From a phage, in assembly GCA_014435945.1 (NCBI GenBank), contig GCA_014435945.1_4088.1: a DNA stretch of 64,000 nt; one strand, 5' to 3'. Positions 13,139 through 45,201 of this stretch are shown piece by piece (the first letter of the stretch is position 1; each line of letters begins with the position of its first letter). The position numbers and the translations under genes are program-made. The notes beneath the pieces were generated by a model that searched no databases, was not told where the DNA came from, and worked only from the letters and a program-made list of their open reading frames with translations.

Positions 13139-13390
13139 ATGAAAGTACTGACAGAATTAGAAATGTATCATAGATTTAACAAGTACTATCATTTACTTAA
13201 ACCTATACAGAGGATTAAGTGTCCCTTTGTAGTGAAACAGGTATTAATTTATGAGCATAAGTTATTTGTATCATTAGGTACGAATGAACAAGAGTATTAT
13301 TTGAAGTTGTACTTAATTACATTAATAGATTTAATTCACTATAAAACCACACAATCCAAACAAGCTAATAAAGAGAAATATGAAAACTAA
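13139..13390 (+). CDS. F1 small paralog protein
   Basis: F1 motif SLGTNEQEYYL; start ATG 13139 just after upstream stop (track 13106). Confidence 0.55.
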   Translation: MKVLTELEMYHRFNKYYHLLKPIQRIKCPFVVKQVLIYEHKLFVSLGTNEQEYYLKLYLITLIDLIHYKTTQSKQANKEKYEN

Positions 13391-13718
13391 TATACAACTC
13401 AAGGTTTATAAATCATTTGCAAGTACATACATCAAATGCTATACATGTAACTATGTAATGGACTACAAAGGTAAGCCATTTACACTTACTTACGATAATA
13501 CAAGAGGTTTTTATATATCTTTTGCTGATTACAAATATAACATATACGAACACATTGACATTGAAGATTTAAGTACTTTATCACCAGAGGAATACTTTCA
13601 GGAATCGTTAGTATGGGATTTGGAGTTTCCTATGCCATTAGTACATAAAATGGTAGTCCAAATGAAAGAAGCTAAACCGGAGTTTAACGGTTATGAAGAA
13701 TACACAATTGAGTATTAA
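13380..13718 (+). CDS. F2 paralog protein (112 aa)
   Basis: F2 module EEYFQESLVWD followed by LVHKMVVQMKE; sits inside the F1 array. Confidence 0.6.
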   Translation: MKTNIQLKVYKSFASTYIKCYTCNYVMDYKGKPFTLTYDNTRGFYISFADYKYNIYEHIDIEDLSTLSPEEYFQESLVWDLEFPMPLVHKMVVQMKEAKPEFNGYEEYTIEY

Positions 13719-13934
13719 ATGAAAAGATTATCATACGAAGATTACACCAATCTTATCAGGACTTTACAACCAGAAATTAAAAGAATTAATTCTCTTCCTA
13801 TATCTAATGAAGAATGTTCAGTACTGAAAGATGAGTTAATCTTAAAACACACAGTAGGAACAAACTATCAAGCAGATAGTGTTCGATATTTAATTTGGGG
13901 GTTGATGTGTCAAATAAAGTCCAGACAAGCTTGA
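13719..13934 (+). CDS. F1 small paralog protein
   Basis: F1 motif TVGTNYQADSV; N-term MKRLSYEDY. Confidence 0.65.
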   Translation: MKRLSYEDYTNLIRTLQPEIKRINSLPISNEECSVLKDELILKHTVGTNYQADSVRYLIWGLMCQIKSRQA

Positions 13935-13960
13935 CAGTACTCTTCATTACTGCTATAGTA
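13931..13960 (+). promoter_or_regulatory. sigma70-like promoter (class C)
   Basis: TTGACAgtactc 13931-13936, 18-nt spacer, TATAGT 13955-13960; resembles 1693 and 1969. Confidence 0.5.
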
Positions 13961-13989
13961 CACTAACGTTAATCATTAGGGTAAAAATT

Positions 13990-14235
13990 ATGTTAAATTT
14001 TTTAAATTTCCTTATCGTCTTGTGTATTGTTCTTGGGATTGCACCATTTGTATTGTATTTCATGGATTCAGATGAAATGCAGAAGATGAATTGCACAAGG
14101 ACAGGACAGAGTAGAGAAGAGACGATTCTTATGCCTGTTACGGTTATTGTTAACAACATGCCCATTACAAACATGGTCCCTACCCTAACGACAACGTACC
14201 AGTACTCTTGTACAGACGGAGAGAGGTGGAGATAA
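13990..14235 (+). CDS. small membrane protein (81 aa)
   Basis: Hydrophobic N-terminus LNFLNFLIVLCIVLGIAPFVLYF; follows promoter. Confidence 0.55.
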   Translation: MLNFLNFLIVLCIVLGIAPFVLYFMDSDEMQKMNCTRTGQSREETILMPVTVIVNNMPITNMVPTLTTTYQYSCTDGERWR

Positions 14236-14558
14236 TGTGTAAGTTCAATTGTATTGTACGTAAGAATTCATGTTACATTGTAGTAGCTGATTTTAATACA
14301 GGTTCTGGGTTGAAGATATTTGAGTACAGAAAATGCAATAATTCTTTTCATTGGAAATTGGGTGCAAGAAAAACAAAAACAATTTCAGTACCGAATTTAT
14401 GTTCTATCTCTGAAGAAGAAGAGTTTCAGTACTTGTTAGTACATGATGATTCTTTAGGATTTACATTCGAAGACATGAAGGAAGTACAAAAGCAGATGAT
14501 TGCACATTGTCATCTTCCAAAGAATTTTGTTCAACGCGTATGTGAATTCTACATATAA
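14235..14558 (+). CDS. F2 paralog protein
   Basis: F2 module EEEFQYLLVHD; TAATG overlap; GGTGGAGA RBS (track 14208). Confidence 0.6.
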   Translation: MCKFNCIVRKNSCYIVVADFNTGSGLKIFEYRKCNNSFHWKLGARKTKTISVPNLCSISEEEEFQYLLVHDDSLGFTFEDMKEVQKQMIAHCHLPKNFVQRVCEFYI

Positions 14559-14567
14559 GAGAAGAAT

Positions 14568-14879
14568 ATGAAATTTAATATAGCAAAAACATCGAGTATA
14601 TGTATTTTTGGTTATGCAGAAGAGTTAGGTGATATTGACATTCTTTTGTACAAAAAGGATGGTGTTATGCATTTCAAGTACCAGGATGAAGAGGCAGACA
14701 ATTATCTTTTACCTAATTTAGTACAAATGCAGGAAGAGGAATTATTCCAGTACAGCTTAATATACGACATTGATATTTGCACGATGCCAGTATTAATTAG
14801 TATTCAAAAAGTGATGCTCGATATGTATGATAAGCTAATACAAGGTATGTCAGGGAGGATCATTGAAATTGACATATAA
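14568..14879 (+). CDS. F2 paralog protein
   Basis: F2 module EELFQYSLIYD then ISIQKVM. Confidence 0.6.
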   Translation: MKFNIAKTSSICIFGYAEELGDIDILLYKKDGVMHFKYQDEEADNYLLPNLVQMQEEELFQYSLIYDIDICTMPVLISIQKVMLDMYDKLIQGMSGRIIEIDI

Positions 14880-14907
14880 GAATATACCTAAAGGAGATGC
14901 AATATAA

Positions 14908-15159
14908 ATGTACAAAAAAATAAACCGTTATTTGTATGCATCAAAGTACAGGGATTTTTGTTTACGAGGGGGAGAGGAAGATTTTGCTCTGAGGTTATCG
15001 GAATTTAATATGTTATTTTATCTTGGGTCAAAAGAACAAGAAGATACAGTACAGAAATTTCTCAATCATCTTGTACAAAAAATTAATATGCAAATTTTGA
15101 TGCTTAAGTTACAGGATGAGATAAATGAATATGAATCCAGAAATAGTTCAGGATCTTAA
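14908..15159 (+). CDS. F1-like small protein
   Basis: F1-like motif YLGSKEQEDTV in C-terminal half. Confidence 0.55.
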   Translation: MYKKINRYLYASKYRDFCLRGGEEDFALRLSEFNMLFYLGSKEQEDTVQKFLNHLVQKINMQILMLKLQDEINEYESRNSSGS

Positions 15160-16178: not shown

Positions 16179-16739
16179 ATGAATGATATTGAGTTATTGG
16201 TACATAAGATTTGCACAATATCGTTAGTGCTGAACAATGCGAATACAGTACAGAGTTCCCTTTTAAGAATTAATAAAGTTGGGAGTAGTTTATATTTGGA
16301 AGTAAAAGCTGGTTTTGCAGGTCAGTACAATGATAAAATCAAAGAAGAAGTTAAGGGAAGTGAAGATGCTTTCATTGAGGTTTGTGCAACAGTTGGTTCA
16401 AATCCAATTTCAGTATCACCGTTAATGCGAAATGAAAATTCAGAATTTAATTCCATTTTTGAAGGTTATTTGTGGTATAATGCTGGAGATGATTATTTTA
16501 TATATCAGAATTCCAAAACGGATTACAGTGAAGAAGGTATAAAATTCATTGATCCTTACAATGAAGCAGAAGTATTTCAGACATCCCTAATATACAATGC
16601 AAATCAAATGAAGTATCTTATGTTGTTTAGTACAATGCATTTGAATCCATTGAAAGATAATTTAAAATTTTTCATTCGTTTAGAATTAGTTGATATTGCT
16701 TATGATCTTTTAATGCAAGGATACAGTTATGAAGTATAA
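16179..16739 (+). CDS. F2 paralog protein
   Basis: F2 module AEVFQTSLIYN; C-terminus DLLMQGYSYEV shared with 16816-17322. Confidence 0.6.
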   Translation: MNDIELLVHKICTISLVLNNANTVQSSLLRINKVGSSLYLEVKAGFAGQYNDKIKEEVKGSEDAFIEVCATVGSNPISVSPLMRNENSEFNSIFEGYLWYNAGDDYFIYQNSKTDYSEEGIKFIDPYNEAEVFQTSLIYNANQMKYLMLFSTMHLNPLKDNLKFFIRLELVDIAYDLLMQGYSYEV

Positions 16740-16815: not shown

Positions 16816-17322
16816 ATGAATGAGATAGAATTATTAGCACACAAGATTAGTACAGTAATGCTTATGCTCAAGAATAATCATTCTATGCATAAGTACATTT
16901 TTATAGGTGATTTACGCATAGAAGATAGATATGATAAATTATCGTTTATGTTTAAAGATGAAAGTAATGCAAAAGTTTGTTTTGCAGCATTTGCCCAAGG
17001 CAATCCAGAACAAGCATCTCCTGTTATATACGAAAATAGTGAAGGGTATTTGTGGGTCAACACAAACGATTATTTCTTTTATGTTTTGAAACAAGATGAT
17101 GAAGTAGAAGCACGAATTGATTTAATTGATATTAGTACAGATTGTAGTGCTGAATTATTTCAGAAATCGTTATTATACAGTCCTCGTCAAATACATTATC
17201 TAAAGTTATTCAGTTCATTGTACGCGAATCCTTTAATTAAGGGTTTTAAATTTTATATCAAAATTCCGCACCTTTCAAACGTTTATGATTTATTAATGCA
17301 AGGATATAGTTATGAAGTATAA
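16816..17322 (+). CDS. F2 paralog protein
   Basis: F2 module AELFQKSLLYS; paralog of 16179-16739. Confidence 0.6.
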   Translation: MNEIELLAHKISTVMLMLKNNHSMHKYIFIGDLRIEDRYDKLSFMFKDESNAKVCFAAFAQGNPEQASPVIYENSEGYLWVNTNDYFFYVLKQDDEVEARIDLIDISTDCSAELFQKSLLYSPRQIHYLKLFSSLYANPLIKGFKFYIKIPHLSNVYDLLMQGYSYEV

Positions 17323-17623
17323 AATGCTTTATACATTAACATTAATATATGTAGAATTAGAATCCGATTCAGATGCATGGAATTTGGTTAAAGAGGTCGA
17401 TACCAATCAATGGTACATGGCAAATTTAGACGCACAGGTTGTTACGGATTATTTTATAGATTTTAATACATTATCTGAAGAAGAATTTTTCCAAATGCAA
17501 TTGGTGGTTGACATGTACGGGCATGACATGGTAACATTACGAAATATACAGAAAGCCGTTAATGAAATCCAAAGCAAGAAAGATTATGAGGTAGGAGAGT
17601 ATTATGAGATCGACGTACAGTGA
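17312..17623 (+). CDS. F2 paralog protein
   Basis: F2 module EEEFFQMQLVVD then TLRNIQKAVNEIQ. Confidence 0.6.
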   Translation: MKYKMLYTLTLIYVELESDSDAWNLVKEVDTNQWYMANLDAQVVTDYFIDFNTLSEEEFFQMQLVVDMYGHDMVTLRNIQKAVNEIQSKKDYEVGEYYEIDVQ

Positions 17624-17643
17624 AAGCAATGAGTACAATAGTT

Positions 17644-17961
17644 ATGATATATAAAATGCTTTATACAGTATCGGGGATATATGTAGAATTAGAACCCGAT
17701 TATCCAGATGGATGGAATTTTATTAAACGCTCCGATAGAAATACATGGCAAATGGAACATTTGGATAATGACGTAATATTAGACAATTTTGTGGATTTTA
17801 ATACATTATCAGAAGAAGAATTCTTCCAAATGCAATGTGTGCTTGACACAAAAGGATTTGATGTGCTATTATTAAAGAATATACAGAAAGCTGTTAACGA
17901 ATTAATATCCAATGACGAGTTAGGCAAAGTGAGGCTGTTCCATGATCTCGAAGTACAATGA
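17644..17961 (+). CDS. F2 paralog protein
   Basis: F2 module EEEFFQMQCVLD; start MIYKMLYT by paralogy (track 17620). Confidence 0.55.
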   Translation: MIYKMLYTVSGIYVELEPDYPDGWNFIKRSDRNTWQMEHLDNDVILDNFVDFNTLSEEEFFQMQCVLDTKGFDVLLLKNIQKAVNELISNDELGKVRLFHDLEVQ

Positions 17962-18517
17962 AAGCAATGAGTACAATGAAATTCAGTACACCTACGCTAA
18001 TGCAATCCTTATGGGACAAAAGTTAGCTTGTATTGTTGCAGCCTTATATAATGCACAGAAAGATTACAAGCGTCACATCCACAAATGTATTGGTATTATT
18101 CCATCGAAGTACAATACATATATTGCGTGCACGAGTCATTTTGATAAACGATTCAATACACCTGATACCCCAAATGCCCATAGTGTTATTGGTCTTTTGG
18201 ATTTTGCCCCTGGTGCTGTTATTGGAAAGAATGATTTAGAGTACGCATGGTATAATAAAAATGCCCCGTTAGTAATGGTAAAATATGATACAGAAACGAA
18301 CAAAGCAATAGAGTACAATACATATAAATCAGAGGAAGAATTTTTCCAAGGTTCATTGCTTGTACCAGTGCGATTGTTATTTTATAATGTCATAATGAGT
18401 ACAGTACACGATAGTCCATTACACAAGAATCACAAAATTAATTTCAATTTTTGTGCTTATGCGATTGATGGTGTTTATGAGTGCTTAATGGAGGTATTGA
18501 GTTATGAAGCTGAATAA
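17942..18517 (+). CDS. F2 paralog protein
   Basis: F2 module EEEFFQGSLLVP. Confidence 0.55.
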   Translation: MISKYNESNEYNEIQYTYANAILMGQKLACIVAALYNAQKDYKRHIHKCIGIIPSKYNTYIACTSHFDKRFNTPDTPNAHSVIGLLDFAPGAVIGKNDLEYAWYNKNAPLVMVKYDTETNKAIEYNTYKSEEEFFQGSLLVPVRLLFYNVIMSTVHDSPLHKNHKINFNFCAYAIDGVYECLMEVLSYEAE

Positions 18518-18845
18518 TACATTTGATATTAAGAAGTTAAGAGAATGGTTTTATAGTATTGAAATTGAAGCCATTCCTTATCATAGATATGAACAAAGTG
18601 ATTTACAAAGTATTGATATCAGAGAGTTGTACAAATATTATCAGAGTGCATTAGAGATGCATAAGTTATTTTTGAGTACAAATTTCATCCTAAATTACAA
18701 TTTTGAGGAATTTAATAATTATAATTTAGTACAGAAATATGTAGTAGCAAAGTACATGTACAATCAAGGTATCAAAGGTTGCCTCGAATTCAATACCGTT
18801 CTTATTTTAGTTGAGGTAATTTTATGCACCGCATGTCTGATTTAG
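18504..18845 (+). CDS. hypothetical protein (113 aa)
   Basis: ORF in array without clear F2 motif. Confidence 0.5.
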   Translation: MKLNNTFDIKKLREWFYSIEIEAIPYHRYEQSDLQSIDIRELYKYYQSALEMHKLFLSTNFILNYNFEEFNNYNLVQKYVVAKYMYNQGIKGCLEFNTVLILVEVILCTACLI

Positions 18846-19321
18846 AGTTCAGTTTAGATGCAGCCTTTAAATTTGTTCACAAAATAGAAACAATATATCG
18901 TACATTATGTGCAATAACATCAGTATCAAAAGAGTTTGATGTTGGTGAAAGGTATCAGGTGTGGAATAATTCATTTTATAATAAAGAACATTCTGCGACG
19001 GCATTTTATATTTTAGCATTTAATCCCAGCAATTGTTACCCAGAGAAGCATGAACGTTATCCAAATGACGACATGTGGTTTGAGTACAAAGAAGATGCTG
19101 ATATGTCGTCAATTGTAGTTCCTGATGATTTTAATGCACAAGATTTAACAGAAGAGTGGTGGTTCCAGCAGAATTTAGTACATGATGATATTGATTTATT
19201 TTTCTATATAGTGTTTAAAATGCTTTATCACAACAATATAGTTAAAGAAAGTTTATCGTTTTCATGTCTATATATTGATGATTTGTACAATGAAATTCAA
19301 ATAAACATGCCTGTATCGTAA
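18824..19321 (+). CDS. F2 paralog protein
   Basis: F2 module EWWFQQNLVHDD; GAGG RBS. Confidence 0.6.
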   Translation: MHRMSDLEFSLDAAFKFVHKIETIYRTLCAITSVSKEFDVGERYQVWNNSFYNKEHSATAFYILAFNPSNCYPEKHERYPNDDMWFEYKEDADMSSIVVPDDFNAQDLTEEWWFQQNLVHDDIDLFFYIVFKMLYHNNIVKESLSFSCLYIDDLYNEIQINMPVS

Positions 19322-19339
19322 GATATGGGCTTTTTTTGT

Positions 19340-19368
19340 TTGACACGAGTACAAATGCATGGTACAAT
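19340..19368 (+). promoter_or_regulatory. sigma70-like promoter
   Basis: TTGACA 19340-19345, 17-nt spacer, TACAAT 19363-19368. Confidence 0.55.
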
Positions 19369-19394
19369 GTGTAATCATTTTTAAGGAGATACCT

Positions 19395-19943
19395 ATGGAA
19401 AATTTTAAAATACCAGATGATTTCAATTCAGTACAAGAGATGGTACACAAGGTTCATTACATTTTTAATGAATTAATTATTGCCAATTCATCCAGTATGC
19501 AAATTGAGTTAAAGGATATTGATAGAGAAGAAGTTTTTTTGGGTTCCCCAAATTCAATCATTCCTTTTTATGGTCAGGACCGTTTATGGTTCATGAGAGA
19601 TACCCCAATTGACAAATACAAAATACAAAACAAATCAGAGAATGATTTTTCTTATTATTATCTTAAAATTTCATTACAAGTACAAGATATTAGTGCAATG
19701 GGTGAAATAAGTGCAGAGGATTATTTTCAGTACAGTACATTGCATAGTCCAGAAGAAATCTTTGTTGCTATGCTCGTTGCAAAATTGAGCACAGTTGATT
19801 TTGGGACATACCCACATAAATCATTCAAGATTATTATTCCTGCATTCGTCGATCTTTATGATTTCATTGTGCACAAGAAAGAAAGTACAGTGTACGATAT
19901 GTATCGTTCAAATTTCAGTATGATTACAGGGGCATTAAAATGA
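19395..19943 (+). CDS. F2 paralog protein
   Basis: F2 module EDYFQYSTLHS; AAGGAG 7 nt before ATG 19395 (track 19359). Confidence 0.6.
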   Translation: MENFKIPDDFNSVQEMVHKVHYIFNELIIANSSSMQIELKDIDREEVFLGSPNSIIPFYGQDRLWFMRDTPIDKYKIQNKSENDFSYYYLKISLQVQDISAMGEISAEDYFQYSTLHSPEEIFVAMLVAKLSTVDFGTYPHKSFKIIIPAFVDLYDFIVHKKESTVYDMYRSNFSMITGALK

Positions 19944-20548
19944 ACATAGATCAATTAATGAAGTACAGTACAAATGCAATTCCAGTGCTAAGTAAAGCAT
20001 TAGATGCATTCAATGCTAAGTACCCTGAAGGTTCAGAGTTAAATATTCCTTTTACCACAGAGGGGATTGTTGATACGTACATTGTAAACATCAGTAGTAC
20101 AGGTATTGTTTTGAAGCAGAAGTACGGCGAAGGTGAATATTATGGATTGAAGCTGGATAATATTTCAGGAGAGAAAACACCTTATGAGTTTTGGGTTCCG
20201 AATAACATTGAGTCATGGAAAACAAATATTAATAAGAGAGACGAAAGAAATTTACCTCTTGTACAAAATAATGAAAAAAGAATTGACGTATTTTATTATT
20301 ACAGTACAGACCAGTTTCCAGAAGAGATTTATTTAAATTCAGAGGTGCATGAAGATATTGAATCATTTTTCTTTCAGTTATCATTGGTACAGGATATCAT
20401 GCCTGTGCAAATGTTCAGGGATGAAATAAATTTAGCGAAAGAGATTTCGGATATGTTACCTGAATTTAGTGTTCTTTATGGTAGTAGAGCTTTACCTGAA
20501 AATGTATACAAAGAATTTATTTCCATTGTTAAAGGGTTGAATATATAA
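19940..20548 (+). CDS. F2 paralog protein
   Basis: F2 module ESFFFQLSLVQD; ATGA overlap. Confidence 0.6.
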   Translation: MNIDQLMKYSTNAIPVLSKALDAFNAKYPEGSELNIPFTTEGIVDTYIVNISSTGIVLKQKYGEGEYYGLKLDNISGEKTPYEFWVPNNIESWKTNINKRDERNLPLVQNNEKRIDVFYYYSTDQFPEEIYLNSEVHEDIESFFFQLSLVQDIMPVQMFRDEINLAKEISDMLPEFSVLYGSRALPENVYKEFISIVKGLNI

Positions 20549-20549
20549 T

Positions 20550-20744
20550 ATGACCGCCTATGATATCAAACAAAGGCATACGAAGTTTGATTTGTTCACA
20601 TACCAATTCCACAATGATATAGTGAATTTTAACATCAATGCGTCATTGCATCCTACATCACAAGATGATTTTGACAACAGAGTGCTTAACATAGTGGTGC
20701 TTTTGTGTTATAATCATTTCAGTGAATATTTTAACACAAGATAA
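20550..20744 (+). CDS. small hypothetical protein (64 aa)
   Basis: ORF directly after upstream stop. Confidence 0.5.
   Translation: MTAYDIKQRHTKFDLFTYQFHNDIVNFNINASLHPTSQDDFDNRVLNIVVLLCYNHFSEYFNTR
20686..20714 (+). promoter_or_regulatory. candidate extended -10 promoter
   Basis: TTAACA 20686-20691, 17-nt spacer, TGtTATAAT with hexamer 20709-20714. Confidence 0.4.
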
Positions 20745-20757
20745 GGTTGAGGCACAC

Positions 20758-21276
20758 ATGTATCAGGCCAAGTACAATACATCATATGTATTTGCACACA
20801 ACATTTTGAAGATCATCAAAGCGTTAGAGGGTGGATTGCTTAGTCATAAGTACACCAAAGTAGGTGACAATTGGTTCAGAAATGATGATGAGTTCAGAAG
20901 TCATAAGATTGTTTACAGCAATAATTACAGTGCCAATTACCTTCAGGATGTTGCTATGTGCTTCGAATACGTGTTACAGTTCAGGGGTTCCATCAGTCCA
21001 GAGCTAAGAGAACACATGTACATTCGATACCTACCAATGCTTAAGGATGAGAAATCAATATTCAATTCAGTACACCACAGAGTACGAGAGAGAACATTCA
21101 GGGATATTTTAGAAGATGAAGCTGCCTATTTTCAGCAATCATTGATTGATGCTCCTGATGTGTTACAGATGCAGAATTTGTATAATGTATTAGATGCGAA
21201 CATCGATACGGATATCTTTTTTTCCTTAAGTGATTATGAAACATTTTTGGAAGATTTAAAGGAAATAGGATTATGA
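20758..21276 (+). CDS. F2 paralog protein
   Basis: F2 module AAYFQQSLIDA; ATG 20758 after AAGGTTGAGG (track GTG 20722). Confidence 0.6.
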   Translation: MYQAKYNTSYVFAHNILKIIKALEGGLLSHKYTKVGDNWFRNDDEFRSHKIVYSNNYSANYLQDVAMCFEYVLQFRGSISPELREHMYIRYLPMLKDEKSIFNSVHHRVRERTFRDILEDEAAYFQQSLIDAPDVLQMQNLYNVLDANIDTDIFFSLSDYETFLEDLKEIGL

Positions 21277-21617
21277 GTAGATTTTCAGTGTATATAGTGA
21301 ACGTCAGTAAAGATGGTAGTTTAATTGAATTTGATGTAGTTGATAACAATGATAATTCATATGGTATTAAGGTACAGGACAATGATGTACAGTTCAGTAC
21401 AAGGACAAATTTTGAGAATCCAGTCCAAGTTCCGAATTTCATAGAAGATGAAGCTGCACGATTCCAATACGAAACGGCCTTTGATAATGTAGCGATGCAT
21501 ATTATTATGCAACAAAGTTTAGTTCAATTGCTTCAGGTATTCAGACAAAATATATATATACATGAAGTGTCGATTAATGGCATTCAAAGTTCCGTTTTGT
21601 TCGGTACAAATATGTAA
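21273..21617 (+). CDS. F2 paralog protein
   Basis: F2 module AARFQYETAFD; ATGA overlap. Confidence 0.55.
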   Translation: MSRFSVYIVNVSKDGSLIEFDVVDNNDNSYGIKVQDNDVQFSTRTNFENPVQVPNFIEDEAARFQYETAFDNVAMHIIMQQSLVQLLQVFRQNIYIHEVSINGIQSSVLFGTNM

Positions 21618-21627
21618 GGAAAGTACA

Positions 21628-22182
21628 ATGAGTTCAATGAGTTTATTAGATACATTAGAAAAAGACAGAAGTGCCATTAAGAGATTAAAAAATCTTGTCC
21701 AGAGCATTGCGAACAACGCTGAGAAGTTCAGTGACAATCTTAGTATAGGTGATATAACCAGTACAGGAATAAAATCCCTGAAGTCAGATTTATTAATTCA
21801 TAAGGAAGATAAATTATTATTTGTATTGAGTTCAGATTTAATGGTTGCAAGTAATGGTTTCAATTCGATATCAACACAAGATGGTAGCACAGGATTATAT
21901 CTATCACAGGGTGTCCAGACGAACGAACAAAAGTGTTTTAGTTCAGGAGTACAGAATCCCTTTAAGTTCAGTACAGAACAAGCTACAGAGCTTTTAGATG
22001 CATCAGAAGAGATGTTATTTCAGTACAAAACGGTTCATACAGATTTTGAATTACGATGCATGTACGCTGTTAAGCATTATGTTCAGGAGTTCGAGGATTT
22101 AAGTTATCTTTTAGTTCGAACGAATACAAAGAACATTGGTGCATTAGAAGATTACATTTCAAAAGTTGTTAAAGGGTGCTAA
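21628..22182 (+). CDS. F2 paralog protein
   Basis: F2 module EMLFQYKTVHTD; ATG 21628 after AAGGAAAG (track 21562). Confidence 0.55.
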   Translation: MSSMSLLDTLEKDRSAIKRLKNLVQSIANNAEKFSDNLSIGDITSTGIKSLKSDLLIHKEDKLLFVLSSDLMVASNGFNSISTQDGSTGLYLSQGVQTNEQKCFSSGVQNPFKFSTEQATELLDASEEMLFQYKTVHTDFELRCMYAVKHYVQEFEDLSYLLVRTNTKNIGALEDYISKVVKGC

Positions 22183-22760: not shown

Positions 22761-22957
22761 AGACGTTTCGTTTTCACAGGCCGCAGGAGGGGGGTCAAAA
22801 AAATTTTCGCTGAAAAACATGTTAAGGTATATGTTTAATATAAAGTTTTAAAATGTGTTCACAGAGTACAGTTCATGTTTCCTGAAACAAAAAATACCCC
22901 GCCGCGAACGTTCTCCTTATATTGGAGTTTACCTTATTAATTACAGTTGAGATTAAG

Positions 22958-36572: not shown

Positions 36573-37075
36573 GTTTATTAAATGCACGAGAATTAGTTGA
36601 GATGTATGAGATCTTATCTTCATATAAAAATTCCCCAAAAGATGTAATTCTAAACAAAAAGTTCCATGTCAATGTTGATCATATGAAAAATATAGATATG
36701 ATTTCTTTAGTGGAAAGTCGCAAATCGGGTATTGAGCGTGATATCATGCGTTTGATTTATATTACCAAACCATCATATACTAATGATAGTTCAATTAGTA
36801 ATGAGACGTTTTTGTACACTCCTTATACTGATTGTACTTTAGTTTCAATGTCTAATCAGAAACAAGATACTATCCAATTCATCAATACCAGTACTGATAA
36901 CATTGAAGAAAATGAATTCCAAAACAATACATTAAGTTCATGTAGTAGTGTTATAACCTTTATGTCATATCTGTGGTCAATCAAATCAAATGCAATTGTA
37001 TATAGTTCTAATTACACACAAGATAGTATTGTTGAATCATTTAAAGTTCTAAAGGAATACTATGAAAATAACTAA
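36569..37075 (+). CDS. F2 paralog protein
   Basis: F2 module EENEFQNNTLSS. Confidence 0.55.
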   Translation: MSLLNARELVEMYEILSSYKNSPKDVILNKKFHVNVDHMKNIDMISLVESRKSGIERDIMRLIYITKPSYTNDSSISNETFLYTPYTDCTLVSMSNQKQDTIQFINTSTDNIEENEFQNNTLSSCSSVITFMSYLWSIKSNAIVYSSNYTQDSIVESFKVLKEYYENN

Positions 37076-37643
37076 TGATTTTATTAGAAGCTTAGTGCAC
37101 CCTATGCTTGGTGTTATGAAAAAATTACAAACTCTACCTGAAGACAACGATTACAAGTTTAATCGTTTTGATTCAGATGTGTTTTGTATTGAAATGGAAA
37201 TTAATAACAATCGTTATTTTCATTTAAAATTCAAAGAATCGTCGAGTTCGCACTACAACTTTGACATGAATTTTAAAATAAGCAATGATATTGAAGAAAA
37301 CGCAATATCAAATCATATTAGCAGAAATGGTTTCATGCATAGAACTAATATGTTCAATAATAAAAACAGTATTATATCTAAATGGAATCATCAATTCACT
37401 AAAATTTGTGATATTGATTGCAGTACATTTGGTGAAGAACAATACTTTCAGTTAAGTACAATACATGAACTTCCACCATATGATTGTGTAAAAACATGGT
37501 TTGATATTCATAATATAATTGATGATGCAATCGTACTTCCATTTGGGTTGTCAATATCATATACTGCACCTAAAACGTTTGTTTTTACTGAAGATATGAT
37601 TATGAAAAAGATATGGGCGATGATCCCACTTATGCTTGATTAA
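37062..37643 (+). CDS. F2 paralog protein
   Basis: F2 module EEQYFQLSTIHELP; paired with next gene. Confidence 0.6.
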   Translation: MKITNDFIRSLVHPMLGVMKKLQTLPEDNDYKFNRFDSDVFCIEMEINNNRYFHLKFKESSSSHYNFDMNFKISNDIEENAISNHISRNGFMHRTNMFNNKNSIISKWNHQFTKICDIDCSTFGEEQYFQLSTIHELPPYDCVKTWFDIHNIIDDAIVLPFGLSISYTAPKTFVFTEDMIMKKIWAMIPLMLD

Positions 37644-37654: not shown

Positions 37655-38206
37655 ATGAATCAAAGTCATGATCTTTTTAAATTATGTGCATCCAAAGATG
37701 TGGAAGGATGGGCAGATAAAATCAATACAATTATTAACCGTTATCTTGGCTTCTGTGCACGTTCACGAAGTGAAGGTTCAATGCGTTTCCAAATAACCAT
37801 GACAATCGATGGTGTTACGATTTATGTCAACGAAGAACGTCTTGGTATTAATCTCTATGATAGTTGTGTCTTTGCTATTCACCAGAAAATGGGGGCAGGT
37901 TGGGGTTGTAATAATATGAACACCAATGCTTTTTTCTGGGTAGGTCATAGCAACACAGTACTTGATCCTTCAAAGAAATCAAACCTTTTAGATGATAATT
38001 TGGTATATGATTTAGCTTACTCTGAAGAACAACATTTCCAGTTAAGTACAATACATAGCTTAGTTCAATATGAAGATTGTATCAAAGCATTAGAATTATG
38101 CCATTCACTTGAACTTAAAGAAAAATTGATACAAATTTACCCATTGTTCTTCCATGAAGAAGTACAATGCACACTAGATCATATTTTATATGGGTACGAC
38201 AAATGA
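37655..38206 (+). CDS. F2 paralog protein
   Basis: F2 module EEQHFQLSTIHSLV. Confidence 0.6.
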   Translation: MNQSHDLFKLCASKDVEGWADKINTIINRYLGFCARSRSEGSMRFQITMTIDGVTIYVNEERLGINLYDSCVFAIHQKMGAGWGCNNMNTNAFFWVGHSNTVLDPSKKSNLLDDNLVYDLAYSEEQHFQLSTIHSLVQYEDCIKALELCHSLELKEKLIQIYPLFFHEEVQCTLDHILYGYDK

Positions 38207-38805
38207 GAAAAAGTTATCAAGAAGCTATTGACCTAATTCGAGAAGTTATTAAGGTGGCTCCTGGTGCGATAGCATTCAAGAAGTCCCTATATAAAAAGTA
38301 TGGCTCTATGTCAAGTATGTGCTGTCAAAAGAAACGTAGTAAATTCACTACGCAGTACTGGCACGATTCTATTATCCTGAGTAATGAACATCAGCGTATT
38401 TTAACAATCGAATCAGTAGATAATCAATATGGTGAAGGAATGATTTGTGTTCCTGACTATGATGAAATTAATTTCAATTGTGGAGATTATGAGACAACAT
38501 TATTATTACACGAGGGTTACCCTGAAGGTGATGTAATGGCAGAGTATAATCCAAAAACCAAAATACTGAAACATGGTATGCAGTTCAAAATCAATAATAA
38601 AGATGATGTGGAAGCAGCACTAATGCAACTTAGTACTAGTGAACCTATCACTATTGATGTAGAAGAGTTATGGGGCATCATTTCAGTACTTAATGAGTGT
38701 TATAAAATTAAATCATTACATAAGTACTCTATCATTTTACATACTAATTGTGCAATGATAAAATGCAAGAACATACAAGAGATGGTGGTTCCAGATGAAC
38801 TTTAA
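38203..38805 (+). CDS. F2 paralog protein
   Basis: F2-like EAALMQLSTSEP; start at ATGA overlap (track 38167). Confidence 0.55.
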   Translation: MRKSYQEAIDLIREVIKVAPGAIAFKKSLYKKYGSMSSMCCQKKRSKFTTQYWHDSIILSNEHQRILTIESVDNQYGEGMICVPDYDEINFNCGDYETTLLLHEGYPEGDVMAEYNPKTKILKHGMQFKINNKDDVEAALMQLSTSEPITIDVEELWGIISVLNECYKIKSLHKYSIILHTNCAMIKCKNIQEMVVPDEL

Positions 38806-39379
38806 AGAAATAGAAAGTAAAATTAAGTACTTCAAAGATATTAAAAAACTTTGGGAAAAGTATAAAATTGATTATCAGTTCCAAGATGATGATACGGTTC
38901 AAAGCATTGATATTAATATTCGTGTGAAGTTCAAGAATGGCAATTATGGCGAAGTTAAATTGAATGCTATTGGTGTATTCCTTAAGGATTATGATGGTTC
39001 TTCACTCGCTCAATTCGATTTCACACCTGATCCTGATGATATGTTATTGAGTGAAGTCAATGCATATGACCTTGAGATGTTTAATGGTAAACCTTTACTA
39101 TTCCGCTTATCAGATGAATGGGATGAGATTTACTACACATACAAAGATGGTGTGATTCGAGACGTAAATGATGAAGTAGTAAATGATATGGAAGAACGTC
39201 TATTTCAAGAATCATGTGTGTCATCGGAGTCATATACATATCAATATCTACTTGACATGTTCGATTTGTATAGTAAAATAGATTCAGAAATGAGTACATT
39301 GGGTATTCATTATCTTACAATCAACGACTTTGCACAACTTGAAACAGCGGTTAAAGCCCTGGTCAAAGTACTGAAATAG
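38795..39379 (+). CDS. F2 paralog protein
   Basis: F2 module EERLFQESCVSSE. Confidence 0.6.
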   Translation: MNFKEIESKIKYFKDIKKLWEKYKIDYQFQDDDTVQSIDINIRVKFKNGNYGEVKLNAIGVFLKDYDGSSLAQFDFTPDPDDMLLSEVNAYDLEMFNGKPLLFRLSDEWDEIYYTYKDGVIRDVNDEVVNDMEERLFQESCVSSESYTYQYLLDMFDLYSKIDSEMSTLGIHYLTINDFAQLETAVKALVKVLK

Positions 39380-39388: not shown

Positions 39389-39802
39389 ATGAAACTGTAT
39401 CATGCGAGTACTGTAAAAATTGATAACTTTTATATCCCGTATGGTGGCCTTCATATGGGAGGTAAACACAGTGCTTTAGAAGCTGCATTACGCAAACTGA
39501 GAAGCCCACTAAACGTCGTTGACGCTGATACAGTATACTTGCATACATTAGAAGTTGATGTTGATAACGTGCTTCTATGGACGGATATGGGCAGTGATGA
39601 TGAATGGCGTGGAGTGATTGAGTACTGCGAAATTAACGGCTATGATGCAGTTCAGTACCAAAACGATTACGAACCAGATACAGTTCCTAGCTATATGATT
39701 TGGGATACGTCTAAGGTTCGCATTATTGAAGTTGATGCGATGCATATGGATGAAGCTGAAATGATCATCGAAGATTTCCTTGATGAATATGAAGGTGTAT
39801 AA
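39389..39802 (+). CDS. hypothetical protein (137 aa), not F2
   Basis: N-terminus MKLYHASTVKIDNFYIPYGG; distinct from neighbours. Confidence 0.55.
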   Translation: MKLYHASTVKIDNFYIPYGGLHMGGKHSALEAALRKLRSPLNVVDADTVYLHTLEVDVDNVLLWTDMGSDDEWRGVIEYCEINGYDAVQYQNDYEPDTVPSYMIWDTSKVRIIEVDAMHMDEAEMIIEDFLDEYEGV

Positions 39803-40320
39803 TGATTGAACCTATGACAGTACTAGCACGTACTAAATTATTATTGAAGATTGGTGAGATATTCACTGATATTTTGTACAGTGGGATTGATATACATGAA
39901 TTAGGCATTAAGCAACCGTGGGAAATAACCAAGTTCTCTGCGTTCTATCGTTTATCATATAAAGGGGAAACGGTTCTGGACTGGAACCCCAAAGCCAAAT
40001 TCATGGAATATGCGGCGTTATATGGAAGCAATGGTGGTATAACAAATAATTTTAAAGAAATTAAAGTCCTAATTGGGTCAAAGGAATTTAATGATCTACT
40101 ATATCCAGAATTTAAGTTAACAGAAGAATTAATATTTCAGTACTCATTGATTTTAAAAGATCTTAATGATTTAAAGTACTACAAAGAGTTAGTAGATATT
40201 TTTATTAATACTCGACTTTCAAAAGATATTGTGATATTCTGGTATGTTGAGTATGTTACAGAGGAATTGCTTGAAGAATTTCTTCTAAATATGACAGCAA
40301 TCAAGGAGAAGTTATGTTAG
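39802..40320 (+). CDS. F2 paralog protein
   Basis: F2 module EELIFQYSLILKD. Confidence 0.6.
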   Translation: MIEPMTVLARTKLLLKIGEIFTDILYSGIDIHELGIKQPWEITKFSAFYRLSYKGETVLDWNPKAKFMEYAALYGSNGGITNNFKEIKVLIGSKEFNDLLYPEFKLTEELIFQYSLILKDLNDLKYYKELVDIFINTRLSKDIVIFWYVEYVTEELLEEFLLNMTAIKEKLC

Positions 40321-40787
40321 ATATTTTAGGAAACATCGATACAGCAAATTATTTTATTCAAGATGCACTGTTCAATACAGTACAGAAAGGGTTGGATGTA
40401 CGATGTAATATCCATCAGGGAGATGGGTATTTTGTTGATATCACTGAAACACGCAAGAACGTGTTCAATTTAAACATTACAACATTAGCACGTCAGAACA
40501 TTGCACGTATTTTGGTCAATAAAGATGAAGTAGTTCTTCGTTATAATTCCAAATTCTTGTTCACATACAAGAAGAAGACTGACATGTTCAGTACTAATTT
40601 GTTTGATGAACCCTTCAATCTGGAAGACTTAGAAGCAACTTTCTTTACACAGAACACTATGCTGAAATTCAATGATGTTGAATTTTCATCAGAAGTAATG
40701 TCTGAAACACTACAAATGGTTAAGGTAGTATTCTATGCTTTTCAACAGTTTAACGAAGAACGAAACAAGGTTAACAACAACAGATGA
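40314..40787 (+). CDS. F2 paralog protein
   Basis: F2-like EATFFTQNTMLKFND. Confidence 0.55.
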   Translation: MLDILGNIDTANYFIQDALFNTVQKGLDVRCNIHQGDGYFVDITETRKNVFNLNITTLARQNIARILVNKDEVVLRYNSKFLFTYKKKTDMFSTNLFDEPFNLEDLEATFFTQNTMLKFNDVEFSSEVMSETLQMVKVVFYAFQQFNEERNKVNNNR

Positions 40788-41148
40788 ACTAATCGCGGCG
40801 ATGGGAGCCAATGAGAAATACTTCAATGGGATTCATTTTTTTAAAACGGATCTTAGTGAAAGTAAAGTACTATATGTGTATGGTTCCCAGTACTGCATTG
40901 TTACAAAGCACCCCGACGCGATTTCACTAAAATTTAATACTTATTCAAAAAACTTCTTGACGATTAATAAAAGCAATGTTACTATGTCTGGTATAGGGAA
41001 TCAGGTTGTTGAGATTCCTTTGGACTCAATTGATTCTATTGAGTTCTTTCAATACGAGTGCTTAGGTGTTGATTTTGGTACGGTCAGTACTGAATCTATG
41101 CGAACATTAATTAATCTACTTAAAGGTAAAGTTCATGCTTTTAACTAA
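40735..41148 (+). CDS. F2 paralog protein
   Basis: F2 module SIEFFQYECLGVD; AAGG RBS; 53-nt overlap with upstream gene. Confidence 0.5.
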   Translation: MLFNSLTKNETRLTTTDELIAAMGANEKYFNGIHFFKTDLSESKVLYVYGSQYCIVTKHPDAISLKFNTYSKNFLTINKSNVTMSGIGNQVVEIPLDSIDSIEFFQYECLGVDFGTVSTESMRTLINLLKGKVHAFN

Positions 41149-41635
41149 TTCGATGAAGAATTCATTTAAAATTATCAAAGAAATACTAAATGGTTCTAAA
41201 AATCATAGTGGGTCTTCCTTTACTAGTGACCAGATCCAACACAGTACAAAGGATTGTACTGTAATCTTTGGGTTACATAGTCTGCGTTTGACAATAGTAA
41301 ATAATATTGATAACACAGCAATTGTAATCACCCCATGTCATATTCAGAATGAAACTGGTGTATACTTACACCACATGGGGACTGTATTCTACATCTTCAA
41401 TACTGAAGAAAATATTGTTAAAGAATACAACACACTCAATGTTGATGCGGGTGAGTTATTTCAATTGAGTACTGTCAATGATTGTAACTTCAGTGACAAT
41501 GCAGAAGTACTTCCATTGTTTCTAAGTCTTCTCAATAACATGGAAAAACTAACCACTGCATACAACAAAAATGACGTACCGCAAGCAGTATTGAATATCA
41601 CCGAAGCAATGGAGAAATACAAAGCTGTGACCTAA
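41135..41635 (+). CDS. F2 paralog protein
   Basis: F2 module AGELFQLSTVNDCN. Confidence 0.55.
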   Translation: MLLTNSMKNSFKIIKEILNGSKNHSGSSFTSDQIQHSTKDCTVIFGLHSLRLTIVNNIDNTAIVITPCHIQNETGVYLHHMGTVFYIFNTEENIVKEYNTLNVDAGELFQLSTVNDCNFSDNAEVLPLFLSLLNNMEKLTTAYNKNDVPQAVLNITEAMEKYKAVT

Positions 41636-43477: not shown

Positions 43478-43505
43478 TAAAATATTGTGGACATAACAAT
43501 TCCTT

Positions 43506-43515
43506 GTGATATAAT
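43506..43515 (+). promoter_or_regulatory. extended -10 promoter element
   Basis: GTGATATAAT with TG at 43507-43508 and hexamer 43510-43515; no good -35. Confidence 0.45.
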
Positions 43516-43548
43516 GTTCACATCTTTTTTTGATAAATGGAGATATAG

Positions 43549-43935
43549 ATGAATACAAGTTCTGTTCTAAAAGCGATTGGTGGTGTACTTCTGATTGAAG
43601 TCCAGGGTGAACCTAAGCTATGTTGCTTAGAAGACATGAAGAATACTAAACACTTCAGTACTGGACAGATTTTCAATGCTATTCGTGTTCTTAACGACAA
43701 ATCAGTACAAGACTATGGAAAGGTATGGCCTTCGTATGTAAATCCTGAAGGTGAAATTAGTGCTGATTGGAAAACAATTGAAGCAGTACGTGTGAGTTGT
43801 GAGAGCGATTGGGATTTCATCGTTGAAGTATGTGACCAACTGCAAGAAGATGTGCCAGAGATTGTCGAACGTAAAGAAGTTCTTGCACAACTTGATAAAT
43901 TCCGTCACGGTACTCTACCGTATGACGTAATCTAA
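43549..43935 (+). CDS. hypothetical protein (128 aa)
   Basis: ATG 43549 after GGAG. Confidence 0.6.
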   Translation: MNTSSVLKAIGGVLLIEVQGEPKLCCLEDMKNTKHFSTGQIFNAIRVLNDKSVQDYGKVWPSYVNPEGEISADWKTIEAVRVSCESDWDFIVEVCDQLQEDVPEIVERKEVLAQLDKFRHGTLPYDVI

Positions 43936-43986
43936 TCTGATTTATTAAAAACTATCTAACTAACATTATATAAAAAGGAATTTAAA

Positions 43987-44292
43987 ATGGAAGACAACGG
44001 AATGAAATTTGATATGTTTGAAGGTGTACCAGAGTTCGATTTCAATAAACTTGAAAATGGTGAAGAATCAGAACTAGTAAGTGTTACACTAAAATCAGAT
44101 ACCAAAAAGAAATATTCCCCATCAGTTCGTTCACGTTCTCAAGAAGAATATGAAACCTTCATTGATAGTATTCATTACGAAACGTTCCATCATGCAGATG
44201 GTACTCCGTATGAAGTTCGTGTTACAGTACTGAAGCCTGAAGTAAACCCAATGGAAAATCTACGTCCTGTTTACTGCTGGGCAAGCCACTAA
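43987..44292 (+). CDS. hypothetical protein (101 aa)
   Basis: ATG 43987 after AAAAGGAA. Confidence 0.6.
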   Translation: MEDNGMKFDMFEGVPEFDFNKLENGEESELVSVTLKSDTKKKYSPSVRSRSQEEYETFIDSIHYETFHHADGTPYEVRVTVLKPEVNPMENLRPVYCWASH

Positions 44293-44300
44293 TAAACCAA

Positions 44301-44331
44301 AGGACGGGATATAATATCTCGTCCTTTTTTT
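44301..44331 (+). terminator. rho-independent terminator
   Basis: 10-bp stem AGGACGGGAT / ATCTCGTCCT with one wobble, loop ATAAT, then TTTTTTT. Confidence 0.7.
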
Positions 44332-44343
44332 GTCTGGAGATAT

Positions 44344-45201
44344 ATGAAACTTTATCTAATCGTTGACTACAGTAAGGGTTATTATGACTACGCAGAAGAA
44401 TCTGAAGGGTATTGCTCGTCTACTAATGTCAATGTACGCACCAGTAATACACATGAGCATGAATCTATTACAAACCTAAAAGATTTCATCGCATATCGAG
44501 CATTTGAAAAGAATTTCTGTCGTAGTAGATATTCGAAGTTTGAGTACCCGTTGATTGATGTTCCTGATGAATTGATGTTCCAGTTAATGCTCACTGGAGT
44601 ACAAGATTATGATTACATCGCGTACAATCACATTACTAAGAAAATTTATATCGGTACGTCAACACATGACATTTCTATGTATGCATCATGCCCGGATGAT
44701 CGAATGAAGGATAGAAATTCACGAAATTCATACAGTAGTGGTTCAGTTGGTTTAAATGATGCATTAAATAAAAATTTATTCTTTGAGTACGAGTTTGATA
44801 ATCATCGAAGGAAAAAAGACCGAGAAGATTATTGTACTGAAATTGATAGTACCAATGGATATGAAGAAGTGAAAGAAGCGTTAATGCCATATATCCTTGA
44901 CAAGTACTACAAAGATTTTCAGTACTGTAGTAATTTTCTAATCCGAAATTCTATCATAATCGGTCGTCAAAGTACTGCATTCTCTAAGTACTACAATGAT
45001 TCCCCTGTTGCTGAAAATGAAAACTGTAATGTTCTCTCAATCCCACGTGAAGATATGGTATTCATGTTCACATCTTTCATTGAAGATGATGAGTTGTATG
45101 TAAAAAACAAGCACAGGTTCATGCCAAGTAAGATTGAGGTTATGAGAAGCTTAAGTGCAGATATCTTAACGAATTTCACTGAAAAAACAGAATACAACTG
45201 A
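44344..45201 (+). CDS. hypothetical protein (285 aa), F2-like
   Basis: Contains DELMFQLMLTGVQD; GGAG RBS. Confidence 0.55.
   Translation: MKLYLIVDYSKGYYDYAEESEGYCSSTNVNVRTSNTHEHESITNLKDFIAYRAFEKNFCRSRYSKFEYPLIDVPDELMFQLMLTGVQDYDYIAYNHITKKIYIGTSTHDISMYASCPDDRMKDRNSRNSYSSGSVGLNDALNKNLFFEYEFDNHRRKKDREDYCTEIDSTNGYEEVKEALMPYILDKYYKDFQYCSNFLIRNSIIIGRQSTAFSKYYNDSPVAENENCNVLSIPREDMVFMFTSFIEDDELYVKNKHRFMPSKIEVMRSLSADILTNFTEKTEYN

Follow-up and report, generated by a model that had tools for sequence, protein, structure and literature searches.

A 64,000-nucleotide stretch of phage DNA (contig GCA_014435945.1_4088.1; hereafter the window) carries a near-continuous series of same-strand genes, whose stops and starts overlap in the list of open reading frames (ORFs), encoding a large tandem family of strongly diverged paralogs, here called the FQ family. 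Structure prediction and end-to-end profile matches indicate that the family is one compact α/β domain in which the common motif forms an internal helix. Its fold matches nothing known, its members are restricted to Rak2-like phages, and its copies are old and individually conserved. We tentatively propose that the array is an early, cytoplasmic, scaffold-based repertoire that would bind conserved host proteins for takeover, with the motif as its structural keystone.

The source phage is an Asteriusvirus (PBECO4/121Q group), a Rak2-like jumbo coliphage. A megablast query with positions 13380-33380 matches Escherichia phage vB_Ec-M-J at 97% identity across 98% of the query, and ~35 further Asteriusvirus genomes, among them PBECO4, 121Q, phAPEC6, SP27 and Sharanji, at 83-97% identity; these relatives are Rak2-like jumbo myophages of 350-385 kb. 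The vB_Ec-M-J record annotates 1-21525 as a direct terminal repeat, and its base ~13997 is the counterpart of window base 1, so the window begins within the left terminal repeat, whose end falls at window ~7.2 kb. Right after the repeat lies a tight array of ~70-amino-acid (aa) genes (7238-13390), followed by the FQ array, which thus begins ~6 kb past the left 21-kb repeat and ends upstream of dam.

Membership was defined with two hidden Markov models (HMMs). The module HMM, seeded with 29 obvious motif carriers and iterated inside the window, converged on 41 ORFs at E<1e-3, all within 13380-45201, whereas the best of ~980 reversed or shuffled control sequences reached E=0.011. The full-length HMM derives from 134 distant representatives in the database; iteration over 582 real and 582 shuffled sequences recovered 39 window ORFs and 0 shuffled sequences. 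Their union gives 42 robust members at E<1e-3, including 53310-53999; these extend from 13380 to 41635, all on the same strand, with outliers at 44344 and 53310. When each remaining ORF of at least 90 aa was aligned together with its orthologs against the family profile by hhalign, six probable diverged members matched over nearly their full length (19940, 27229, 32737, 34432, 34995 and 36144; E 2e-6 to 8e-4) and four ORFs were borderline (21273, 38167, 40735 and 52735; E 0.005-0.02). ORFs outside the array gave E>=0.04, except 3414-3821, which reached E 0.01 over 15 columns covering the motif only. The family therefore counts 42 robust members, 48 probable ones and 52 at most.

A sequence-only reading of the window had described about 54 tandem paralogs with a common E-E-x-F-F-Q-x-S-L-V-x-D module. 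A large same-strand family that fills 13380-41635, its E-E-x-[FY]-F-Q-x-S-[LT]-[VI] motif and the conservation of that motif above shuffled and reversed background are borne out, but the figure of 54 is an upper bound, since it must count non-members (42319-43167, 39389-39802, 43549-43935 and four small ORFs in the FQ block that belong to a different 70-aa family). The ORFs starting at 39389, 41678, 42319, 43184, 43549, 43987, 15848, 18504 and 28662 lie in the block and fall outside the FQ family. Two extra members had also been placed at 52735-53999, of which 53310-53999 (E 9.3e-7) is a member and 52735-53313 is borderline only (E 0.0052). The protein encoded at 44344-45201 is atypical, as its motif lies at residue 75 of 285 and it matches the module HMM only; it is possibly an N-terminal family domain with an extension.

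The motif consensus is [ST]-E-E-x-[YH]-F-Q-x-S-[LT]-[ILV]-[YH], and the motif lies ~45-75 residues before the C-terminus. None of the 41 aligned window members departs from F or Q, and among the 134 representatives, which have 20-40% identity, F is present in 100%, Q in 97%, the S at +2 in 91% and each E in ~85%. Its codons vary freely, with TTT in 23 and TTC in 18 members, CAG in 26 and CAA in 15, and Ser encoded by AGY in 18 and by TCN in 12. Conservation is therefore at the protein level, and a DNA or RNA element, whether a recombination signal or a regulatory element, is ruled out by this free codon variation and the use of both Ser codon families. Rfam and tRNA scans of the window gave no matches.

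Conservation is not confined to the motif. The alignment of 22 long members (145-200 aa) reveals a common N-terminal amphipathic helix, a "Y-I-S-Y-C" strand and a C-terminal "FYLDL" strand in addition to the motif, and per-column information across the 134 representatives identifies A10, I13, Y44, Y68, Y74, I75, Y77, L124, L133 and F141-D144 as conserved. Specifically, A10 and I13 belong to the N-terminal helix, and Y44, Y68, Y74 and Y77 are aromatic strand positions; the conserved positions are mostly core hydrophobic or aromatic ones, whereas loops and sheet surfaces vary in sequence and length. An AlphaFold2 (AF2) model of a long member (25126-25614), computed from an alignment of the 22 paralogs only, has a predicted local distance difference test score (pLDDT) of 88.3 and a predicted template modelling score (pTM) of 0.84. 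It comprises a helix at 3-22, seven strands, a helix at 99-103, the motif helix at 109-115, a helix at 121-135, a strand at 141-144 and a helix at 146-152, so that the long form runs from an N-terminal helix through a 5-7-stranded antiparallel sheet, a short helix, the motif helix, a long helix and the FYLDL strand to a last helix.

Thirteen short members (100-137 aa) are devoid of the N-terminal helix and carry a post-motif "L..IQK..K" helix, whose Q is >=90% conserved in the short class only. The short-form model (23332-23691; pLDDT 84.9, pTM 0.82) contains five strands, the motif helix at 66-75, a helix at 84-101 and a strand at 109-113, which is the element order of the long form minus the terminal helices. 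Profiles of the two classes align over the 20-residue motif only (hhalign E 5.8e-6). RaK2 members of intermediate length (124-140 aa) match the long HMM at 1e-11 to 1e-19, and one of 124 aa can be superposed on the long model at a template modelling (TM) score of 0.74, normalised to the target. Because of the predicted topology and these intermediate-length members, a common fold of the short and long classes is likely but not proven.

The motif segment exceeds pLDDT 95 in the models. On a helical wheel, the two variable motif positions would face solvent and Y/F the opposite side, and the motif is thus probably a packing element. Taken together, the confident AF2 models, the end-to-end database and profile matches and the core positions along the whole length point to a single domain. 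The idea of a common targeting module behind hypervariable N-termini is therefore replaced by that of one compact predicted domain, with the motif as a helix inside it. Likewise, the N-terminal two-thirds, earlier called essentially unrelated, are matched end to end by the long-class HMM and have conserved helix and strand positions, and the post-motif [LI]xx[IV]Q[KR]xMKE helix exists as described but is confined to the 13 short members.

Searches in Pfam, NCBIfam, PADLOC and the PDB returned no known relative. The sole Pfam hit was DUF1803, in one member, over 38 residues and at 19.8 bits versus a gathering threshold of 32.2; NCBIfam gave nothing above curated thresholds, PADLOC (defence families) no match better than E 0.004, and a PDB sequence-profile search no match; neither of the latter two linked the domain to a described anti-phage-defence or anti-defence family. 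In PHROGs, window proteins are full-length members (E 1e-33 to 1e-98) of many separate groups of unknown function (phrog_9317, 12674, 34017, 15629, 13866, 33987, 19795, 28549, 30625 and others); these groups hit one another only weakly (E 1e-4 to 1e-13), and PHROGs has no record of the motif and fold that unite them. The BFVD fold search retrieved only uncharacterised Rak2-like phage proteins, from 121Q, RaK2, Serratia BF, Yersinia fHe-Yen9-04, GAP32, Erwinia pEa_SNUABM_47 and SP27. Generic antiparallel-sheet-plus-helix platforms are among the nearest comparisons (an ATP-grasp subdomain, the RNA polymerase β lobe, an MHC-like platform, the polo-box and LolA), and the domain is novel-looking.

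Word-indexed homolog searches found only close Asteriusvirus relatives, all annotated "hypothetical protein". An HMMER scan of 1.84 billion representative proteins returned 158 clusters at E<=1e-3, nearly all of 145-210 aa and matched end to end; those with a name read "hypothetical protein" and come from ~350 kb contigs, filed under E. coli and evidently phage genomes. Using 18 concatenated distant representatives, tblastn located arrays in Klebsiella phages RaK2, K64-1, Muenster and KP13-7, whereas tblastn with a single metagenomic representative gave no match in phage genomes. The RaK2 array occupies the corresponding position with >20 HMM-positive genes; after it come two ~285-aa genes, dam, a cytidyltransferase and, further on, rnlA. 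A 109-kb metagenomic contig holds 24 members among 34 ORFs within 20 kb. The family is restricted to Rak2-like phages, with arrays syntenic upstream of dam. A literature search on Asteriusvirus and Rak2-like phages, covering transcriptomes, anti-defence work and family descriptions, yielded nothing specific. Many NCBI entries labelled Escherichia coli lie on contigs of 347-359 kb, evidently the genomes of jumbo phages included in bacterial assemblies, and a partial copy on a 563-bp contig labelled Actinomadura adrarensis, 89% identical to a coliphage protein, is probably contamination.

The repertoire is old. BLASTP detects only 52 of the 861 paralog pairs in the window, identity peaks at 55% in the closest pair, and overall identity among members is 15-30% despite the invariant motif. 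Twenty of the 48 members match a RaK2 protein better than any paralog in their own genome, and 18 form reciprocal-best pairs with RaK2, collinear in the distal half. RaK2 orthology together with low paralog identity implies that most diversification predates the Asteriusvirus/Alcyoneusvirus split. The local sub-clusters that the sequence-only reading took for recent tandem duplicates are indeed the youngest, yet their closest paralogs are only 33-55% identical and most own an SP27 ortholog.

In line with this age, SP27 has syntenic reciprocal-best orthologs for 37 of 41 members (4 have none), and the pooled ratio of nonsynonymous to synonymous divergence (ω, NG86) against SP27 is 0.28 for the portion preceding the motif, 0.25 for the portion that begins with it and 0.17 in the 14-residue motif, compared with 0.17 in neighbouring non-family genes. 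Purifying selection, in a somewhat relaxed form, acts on both halves of the members. Positive selection on the variable N-terminal part was considered and rejected, as 0.28 versus 0.25 carries no signal in this two-genome comparison of the window with SP27 orthologs. Because selection is purifying in both halves and 20 of 48 members are closer to RaK2, the sequences do not support a fast arms race.

Divergence from SP27 is mosaic between adjacent genes, with synonymous divergence (dS) from 0 to >2, which implies recombination between lineages. Across 13-52 kb, adjacent orthologs range from 100% identity (26786) down to 55% (28075, dS 2.9). Many array genes have dS 0.03-0.3 against 0.9-1.4 for the dam-region genes downstream, indicating recent recombinational exchange of parts of the array.

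Expression signals were assessed by consensus scanning. Near-consensus σ70 promoters (>=11 of 12 positions) number 24 on the plus (coding) strand and 2 on the minus strand across the whole window, and those in the few intergenic gaps of the array start at 13931, 19340, 20686, 30495 (12/12), 34376 and 43488, the others being 11/12. These strand-biased matches and the position after the terminal repeat suggest that the array is transcribed by the host polymerase as long polycistronic early messages. In PA5oct, a distant clade member, the terminal-repeat genes are the early class, and transcription depends on host RNA polymerase throughout (PMC7318152). Members are mostly acidic (median pI 4.9 and net charge -9, versus 5.9 and -1 for other ORFs), sequence inspection found no signal or membrane segments in them, and none of the 62 proteins detected by virion mass spectrometry of phAPEC6 comes from the orthologous block gp396c-gp466c. 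From these features we infer early expression and cytoplasmic action. Position after the repeat, promoter strand bias, small acidic products and absence from the phAPEC6 virion are likewise consistent with the diversified effector repertoire envisaged in the sequence-only reading.

We thus propose, tentatively, the following course of events. Soon after DNA entry, host σ70 RNA polymerase would transcribe the array into long polycistronic messages. The products would remain in the cytoplasm, where the variable surface of each may bind, and thereby inhibit or redirect, a different host protein, so that one scaffold would serve a whole takeover repertoire, with targets possibly including defence proteins common to Enterobacterales. 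The invariant motif would act as a keystone packing the helical layer onto the sheet and not as a separate targeting signal. The repertoire is old and stable: each paralog persists as an ortholog in other phage species, and for many this holds between genera as well. Such stable orthology implies that the targets should belong to the conserved part of the host and not to components that differ by strain and change fast. Several points weigh against this proposal. Host-protein binding is something we infer for every member, the promoter matches come from consensus scans only, the burial of the motif follows from helical-wheel reasoning, and the virion proteome is that of the relative phAPEC6, with limited sensitivity for small low-copy proteins. 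Additionally, a motif with a purely structural role would seldom conserve polar residues as strongly as E109, E110, Q114 and S116, which could point to a functional site common to the members, the short and long profiles are joined through the 20-residue motif only (hhalign E 5.8e-6), and stable orthology across genera would suit an internal phage function equally well.

The polar residues lead to an alternative that we consider improbable but worth weighing, in which the conserved EExYFQxS surface docks all paralogs on one partner (a host protease, RNA polymerase or ribosome, or a phage protein) and the variable sheet recruits clients, analogous to the F-box/PRANC adaptor families of large eukaryotic viruses. 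Near-invariant polar E, E, Q and S persist inside an otherwise extremely diverged family, the motif is the sole segment aligned between short and long profiles, and it is under the strongest purifying selection (ω 0.17 versus 0.25-0.28); on the other hand, the helix that contains it is confidently predicted (pLDDT >95), the two variable motif positions presumably point to solvent, conserved core positions spread across the whole domain, and no candidate partner gene co-varies with the array. A more specific form, in which this face plugs the paralogs into one host machine (an AAA+ protease or the transcription or translation apparatus) and ~45 sheets deliver or sequester different host proteins, is slightly less probable again; if true, it would be a programmable proteome-remodelling toolkit of a jumbo phage, comparable to the F-box/PRANC families. 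Paralogs might also bind each other through the conserved face and build a heteromeric intracellular structure or regulatory complex for the phage itself, which would fit the one-to-one orthology across genera with different hosts, the purifying selection on every copy and the tight, translationally coupled gene packing. We regard this as unlikely, since it is without precedent, ~45 distinct subunits would be extraordinary, copy number differs between close relatives (the 4 window members without an SP27 ortholog), and cytology of the relative Sharanji reports no nucleus-like compartment (PMC11895373). An import signal for a chimallivirus nucleus was also considered and dropped, Asteriusvirus not being a chimallivirus.

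That the copies are individually functionless, a by-product of tandem duplication enlarging the genome to fit a bigger capsid, accords with the ratchet idea of Hua et al. 2017 and with the interpretation of the 121Q and phAPEC6 arrays as expansion by duplication (PMC5646251; Wagemans et al., PMC7247149). It is very unlikely here, because ω is ~0.25, the ORFs are intact in all genomes compared, orthologs are kept between genera, the motif is invariant despite 15-30% overall identity, and the duplications are ancient, not recent. Scarcely credible, finally, is the reading of the motif as a short linear signal, for protease cleavage or for β-clamp binding, which has sequence resemblance in its favour. 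The potyviral nuclear inclusion a (NIa)/tobacco etch virus (TEV) cleavage consensus is ExxYxQ|G/S, with G, S or A needed after Q, and the β-clamp-binding consensus is QL[SD]LF; EEGYFQGS and EEMYFQGS resemble the former, and QESLVF, or QxSL[IV][FYW] in general, the latter. However, the residue after the motif Q is unconstrained (Y, E, N, Q, G, L or M across the 41 members), no 3C/NIa-like protease occurs among the window ORFs scanned, position 4 of the clamp consensus is T or C instead of L in 17 of 41 members, and the segment lies in a well-ordered predicted fold (pLDDT >95), not in a disordered tail. Exact matches to the TEV/NIa consensus ExxYxQ(G/S) in several members, such as 26786 (EEGYFQGS) and 31037 (EEMYFQGS), are judged coincidental and call for caution when members are expressed with TEV-cleavable tags. 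The remaining probability we leave to functions that we have not thought of.

Table 1. FQ-family members and expression signals in the window. Paired E values are module HMM / iterated full-length HMM. RBH, reciprocal best hit; id, identity; prob, probability.
Feature	Coordinates	Strand	Evidence
Short class, 112 aa	13380..13718	+	E 2.5e-13 / 5.5e-11; motif PEEYFQESLV
Short class, start may be ATG 14235	14208..14558	+	E 3e-11 / 3.4e-14; RBH to RaK2
Short class	14568..14879	+	E 4.2e-15 / 2.1e-11
Long class	16179..16739	+	E 8.3e-13 / 1.2e-22
Long class, paralog of 16179 at 39% id	16816..17322	+	E 7.2e-14 / 3.3e-26
Short class	17312..17623	+	E 2.2e-15 / 4.9e-10
Short class, 55% id to 17312 (closest pair in window)	17620..17961	+	E 1.4e-13 / 6.5e-12
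Long class	17942..18517	+	E 1.8e-11 / 1.7e-23
Long class	18824..19321	+	E 2.2e-12 / 3.3e-19
Terminator-like hairpin with T-run	19309..19330	+	Directly before promoter match 19340
Long class	19359..19943	+	E 1.9e-10 / 4.5e-17
Probable diverged member, FFFQLSLVQD	19940..20548	+	hhalign E 6.5e-5, prob 64%
Long class	20722..21276	+	E 1.2e-10 / 2.7e-21
Borderline member	21273..21617	+	hhalign E 0.0058
Long class	21562..22182	+	E 3e-11 / 4.6e-10
Short class, start may be ATG 22958	22922..23335	+	E 6.4e-13 / 3.7e-9
Short class, modelled	23332..23691	+	E 2.1e-16 / 2.7e-15; AF2 pLDDT 84.9, pTM 0.82
Short class	23688..24032	+	E 2.2e-11 / 2.4e-12
Long class	24216..24686	+	E 2.3e-14 / 4.3e-26
Long class	24683..25123	+	E 1.3e-15 / 3.2e-29
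Long class, modelled	25126..25614	+	E 1.1e-18 / 1.5e-32; AF2 pLDDT 88.3, pTM 0.84
Long class	25592..26035	+	E 3.9e-18 / 1e-32
Short class	26032..26346	+	Module HMM E 4e-12
Long class	26346..26789	+	E 1.5e-11 / 2.8e-24
Long class	26786..27232	+	E 2.5e-12 / 9.5e-31
Probable diverged member	27229..27762	+	hhalign E 1.5e-4, 137 columns; RBH to RaK2 E 8e-10
Long class, start may be ATG 28117	28075..28671	+	E 8.2e-13 / 5e-14
Short class	29270..29629	+	E 5.5e-16 / 1.2e-8
Short class	29619..29957	+	E 3.9e-10 / 1.3e-8
Long class, start may be ATG 29965	29908..30498	+	E 1.1e-11 / 1.3e-29
Perfect σ70-type promoter match, TTGACA-18-TATAAT	30495..30524	+	Consensus match only; intergenic gap of array
Long class	30558..31040	+	E 3.2e-12 / 5.8e-26
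Long class	31037..31519	+	E 7.4e-14 / 3.6e-31
Short class	31512..31874	+	E 1.1e-14 / 3.3e-15
Short class	31858..32271	+	E 2.9e-13 / 3.5e-8
Long class	32259..32753	+	E 1.1e-15 / 4.2e-33
Probable diverged member, degenerate motif	32737..33279	+	hhalign E 2.1e-6, prob 89%, 153 columns
Long class	33276..33833	+	E 1.5e-8 / 1e-26
Long class	33760..34344	+	E 5.9e-12 / 5.5e-13
Probable diverged member	34432..34995	+	hhalign E 1.6e-4, 153 columns
Probable diverged member, YIFQRSVLDN	34995..35579	+	hhalign E 4.4e-4, 153 columns
Long class	35566..36144	+	E 2.3e-12 / 3.3e-13
Probable diverged member	36144..36572	+	hhalign E 7.6e-4, 135 columns
Long class	36569..37075	+	E 3.6e-11 / 2.2e-8
Long class	37062..37643	+	E 1.9e-11 / 1.3e-9
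Long class	37655..38206	+	E 1.9e-6 / 9.4e-9
Borderline member	38167..38805	+	hhalign E 0.018
Long class	38795..39379	+	Module HMM E 2.7e-12
Long class	39802..40320	+	E 4.4e-5 / 1.1e-5
Borderline member, IEFFQYECLG	40735..41148	+	hhalign E 0.0094
Long class, last gene of contiguous array	41135..41635	+	E 3.1e-4 / 7.2e-8; RBH to RaK2 E 8e-11
Atypical 285-aa protein, motif at residue 75	44344..45201	+	Module HMM only, E 1.8e-7; RaK2 ortholog retains DEYVFQFMLM
Borderline outlying member	52735..53313	+	hhalign E 0.0052, 138 columns
Outlying member, 229 aa	53310..53999	+	Full-length HMM E 9.3e-7, no shuffled matches

The ~70-aa genes form a second tandem family, whose 32 ORFs (~65-94 aa) share the C-terminal motif LGTNYQE..V..YI.AL (HMM E 1e-11 to 1e-27; best shuffled sequence 0.015), 28 of them consecutive at 7238-13390 and four inside the FQ array (13719-13934, 14908-15159, 27731-27958 and 27936-28127). 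Homology of this family to the FQ family, as an N-terminal helix, motif and C-terminal helix without the sheet, was rejected at hhalign E 0.05-0.36. In the terminal-repeat part of the window (1-7200), a perfect TTGACA-16/17-TATAAT promoter stands ahead of nearly every gene, and two near-identical 28-nt hairpins, at 2896-2923 and 5655-5682 (AAAGGGATTGACTC.GGTCAGTCCCTTT), include the -35 hexamer of a promoter match, resembling the promoter-stem-loop cassettes of T4-type hyperplastic regions.

Within the array, whose products are otherwise cytoplasmic, the 109-aa product of 15848-16177 has a typical signal peptide (MNKIILALTFILSMFSNTVQA/AD) and the 81-aa product of 13990-14235 a hydrophobic N-terminal segment. 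The conserved non-family gene at 39389-39802 (137 aa; phrog_11632, without a Pfam hit) has a same-sized gene at the corresponding place of the RaK2 array locus (28862-29272). The largest gap after the array, 45201-45831, gave no Rfam or tRNA hit; its sole ORF, 45525-45770 (TTG start), has ω ~1.0 versus SP27 and is probably non-coding.

The array (~28 kb) means that ~7-8% of a 350-380 kb genome is devoted to one uncharacterised domain, an investment conserved in Rak2-like phages of Escherichia, Klebsiella, Serratia, Yersinia, Cronobacter and Erwinia. Therapeutic use of these phages is being proposed at a time when >80% of their genes lack annotation. Once ~45 "hypothetical proteins" per genome are recognised as a single family, for which a confident fold model and an invariant motif are at hand, they become tractable, as one structure would inform dozens of genes. 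Should the members prove to bind host proteins, they would form a ready library of inhibitors directed at conserved enterobacterial proteins; should the motif prove to be a common docking site, phages would have their first described multigene family of adaptor type.

Tandem arrays have been noted in the jumbo phages 121Q, phAPEC6 and G (Hua et al. 2017, PMC5646251; Wagemans et al. 2020, PMC7247149), and ~10% paralogues in RaK2 (PMC3622015). These reports concern the same phage group and the same tandem-paralog phenomenon, which they read as genome expansion by duplication. They are one-line remarks without a family definition, motif, fold or function, whereas the copies here are ancient and individually conserved, and the first of the array remarks suits the neighbouring 32-member 70-aa family better. 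In Bacillus phage G, a lineage-specific expansion of ~35 zinc-ribbon proteins (Iyer et al. 2021, PMC7824862) similarly multiplies one small domain to tens of copies in a jumbo phage. Its fold and lineage differ, and FQ proteins have no metal ligands and are acidic rather than nucleic-acid-binding in character.

Among eukaryotic viruses, the MGF360/505 families of African swine fever virus and the Bcl-2-like and ankyrin/PRANC families of poxviruses are early, non-structural proteins that bind diverse host factors. By analogy, the FQ array would be a comparable set of dozens of diverged one-fold paralogs clustered near a genome terminus, although there is no sequence or fold relation, the FQ phage has a bacterial host, and the content of its array is more stable among relatives than is usual for those families. 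Small early host-takeover proteins are also made by T4, T5 (as pre-early products of its terminal repeat), T7 and SPO1. The FQ block resembles these sets in lying near the first-entering end, in its strong σ70-type promoter matches and in its small, acidic, probably cytoplasmic and non-virion products; unlike them, as they are collections of unrelated proteins, it derives mostly from one ancestral domain.

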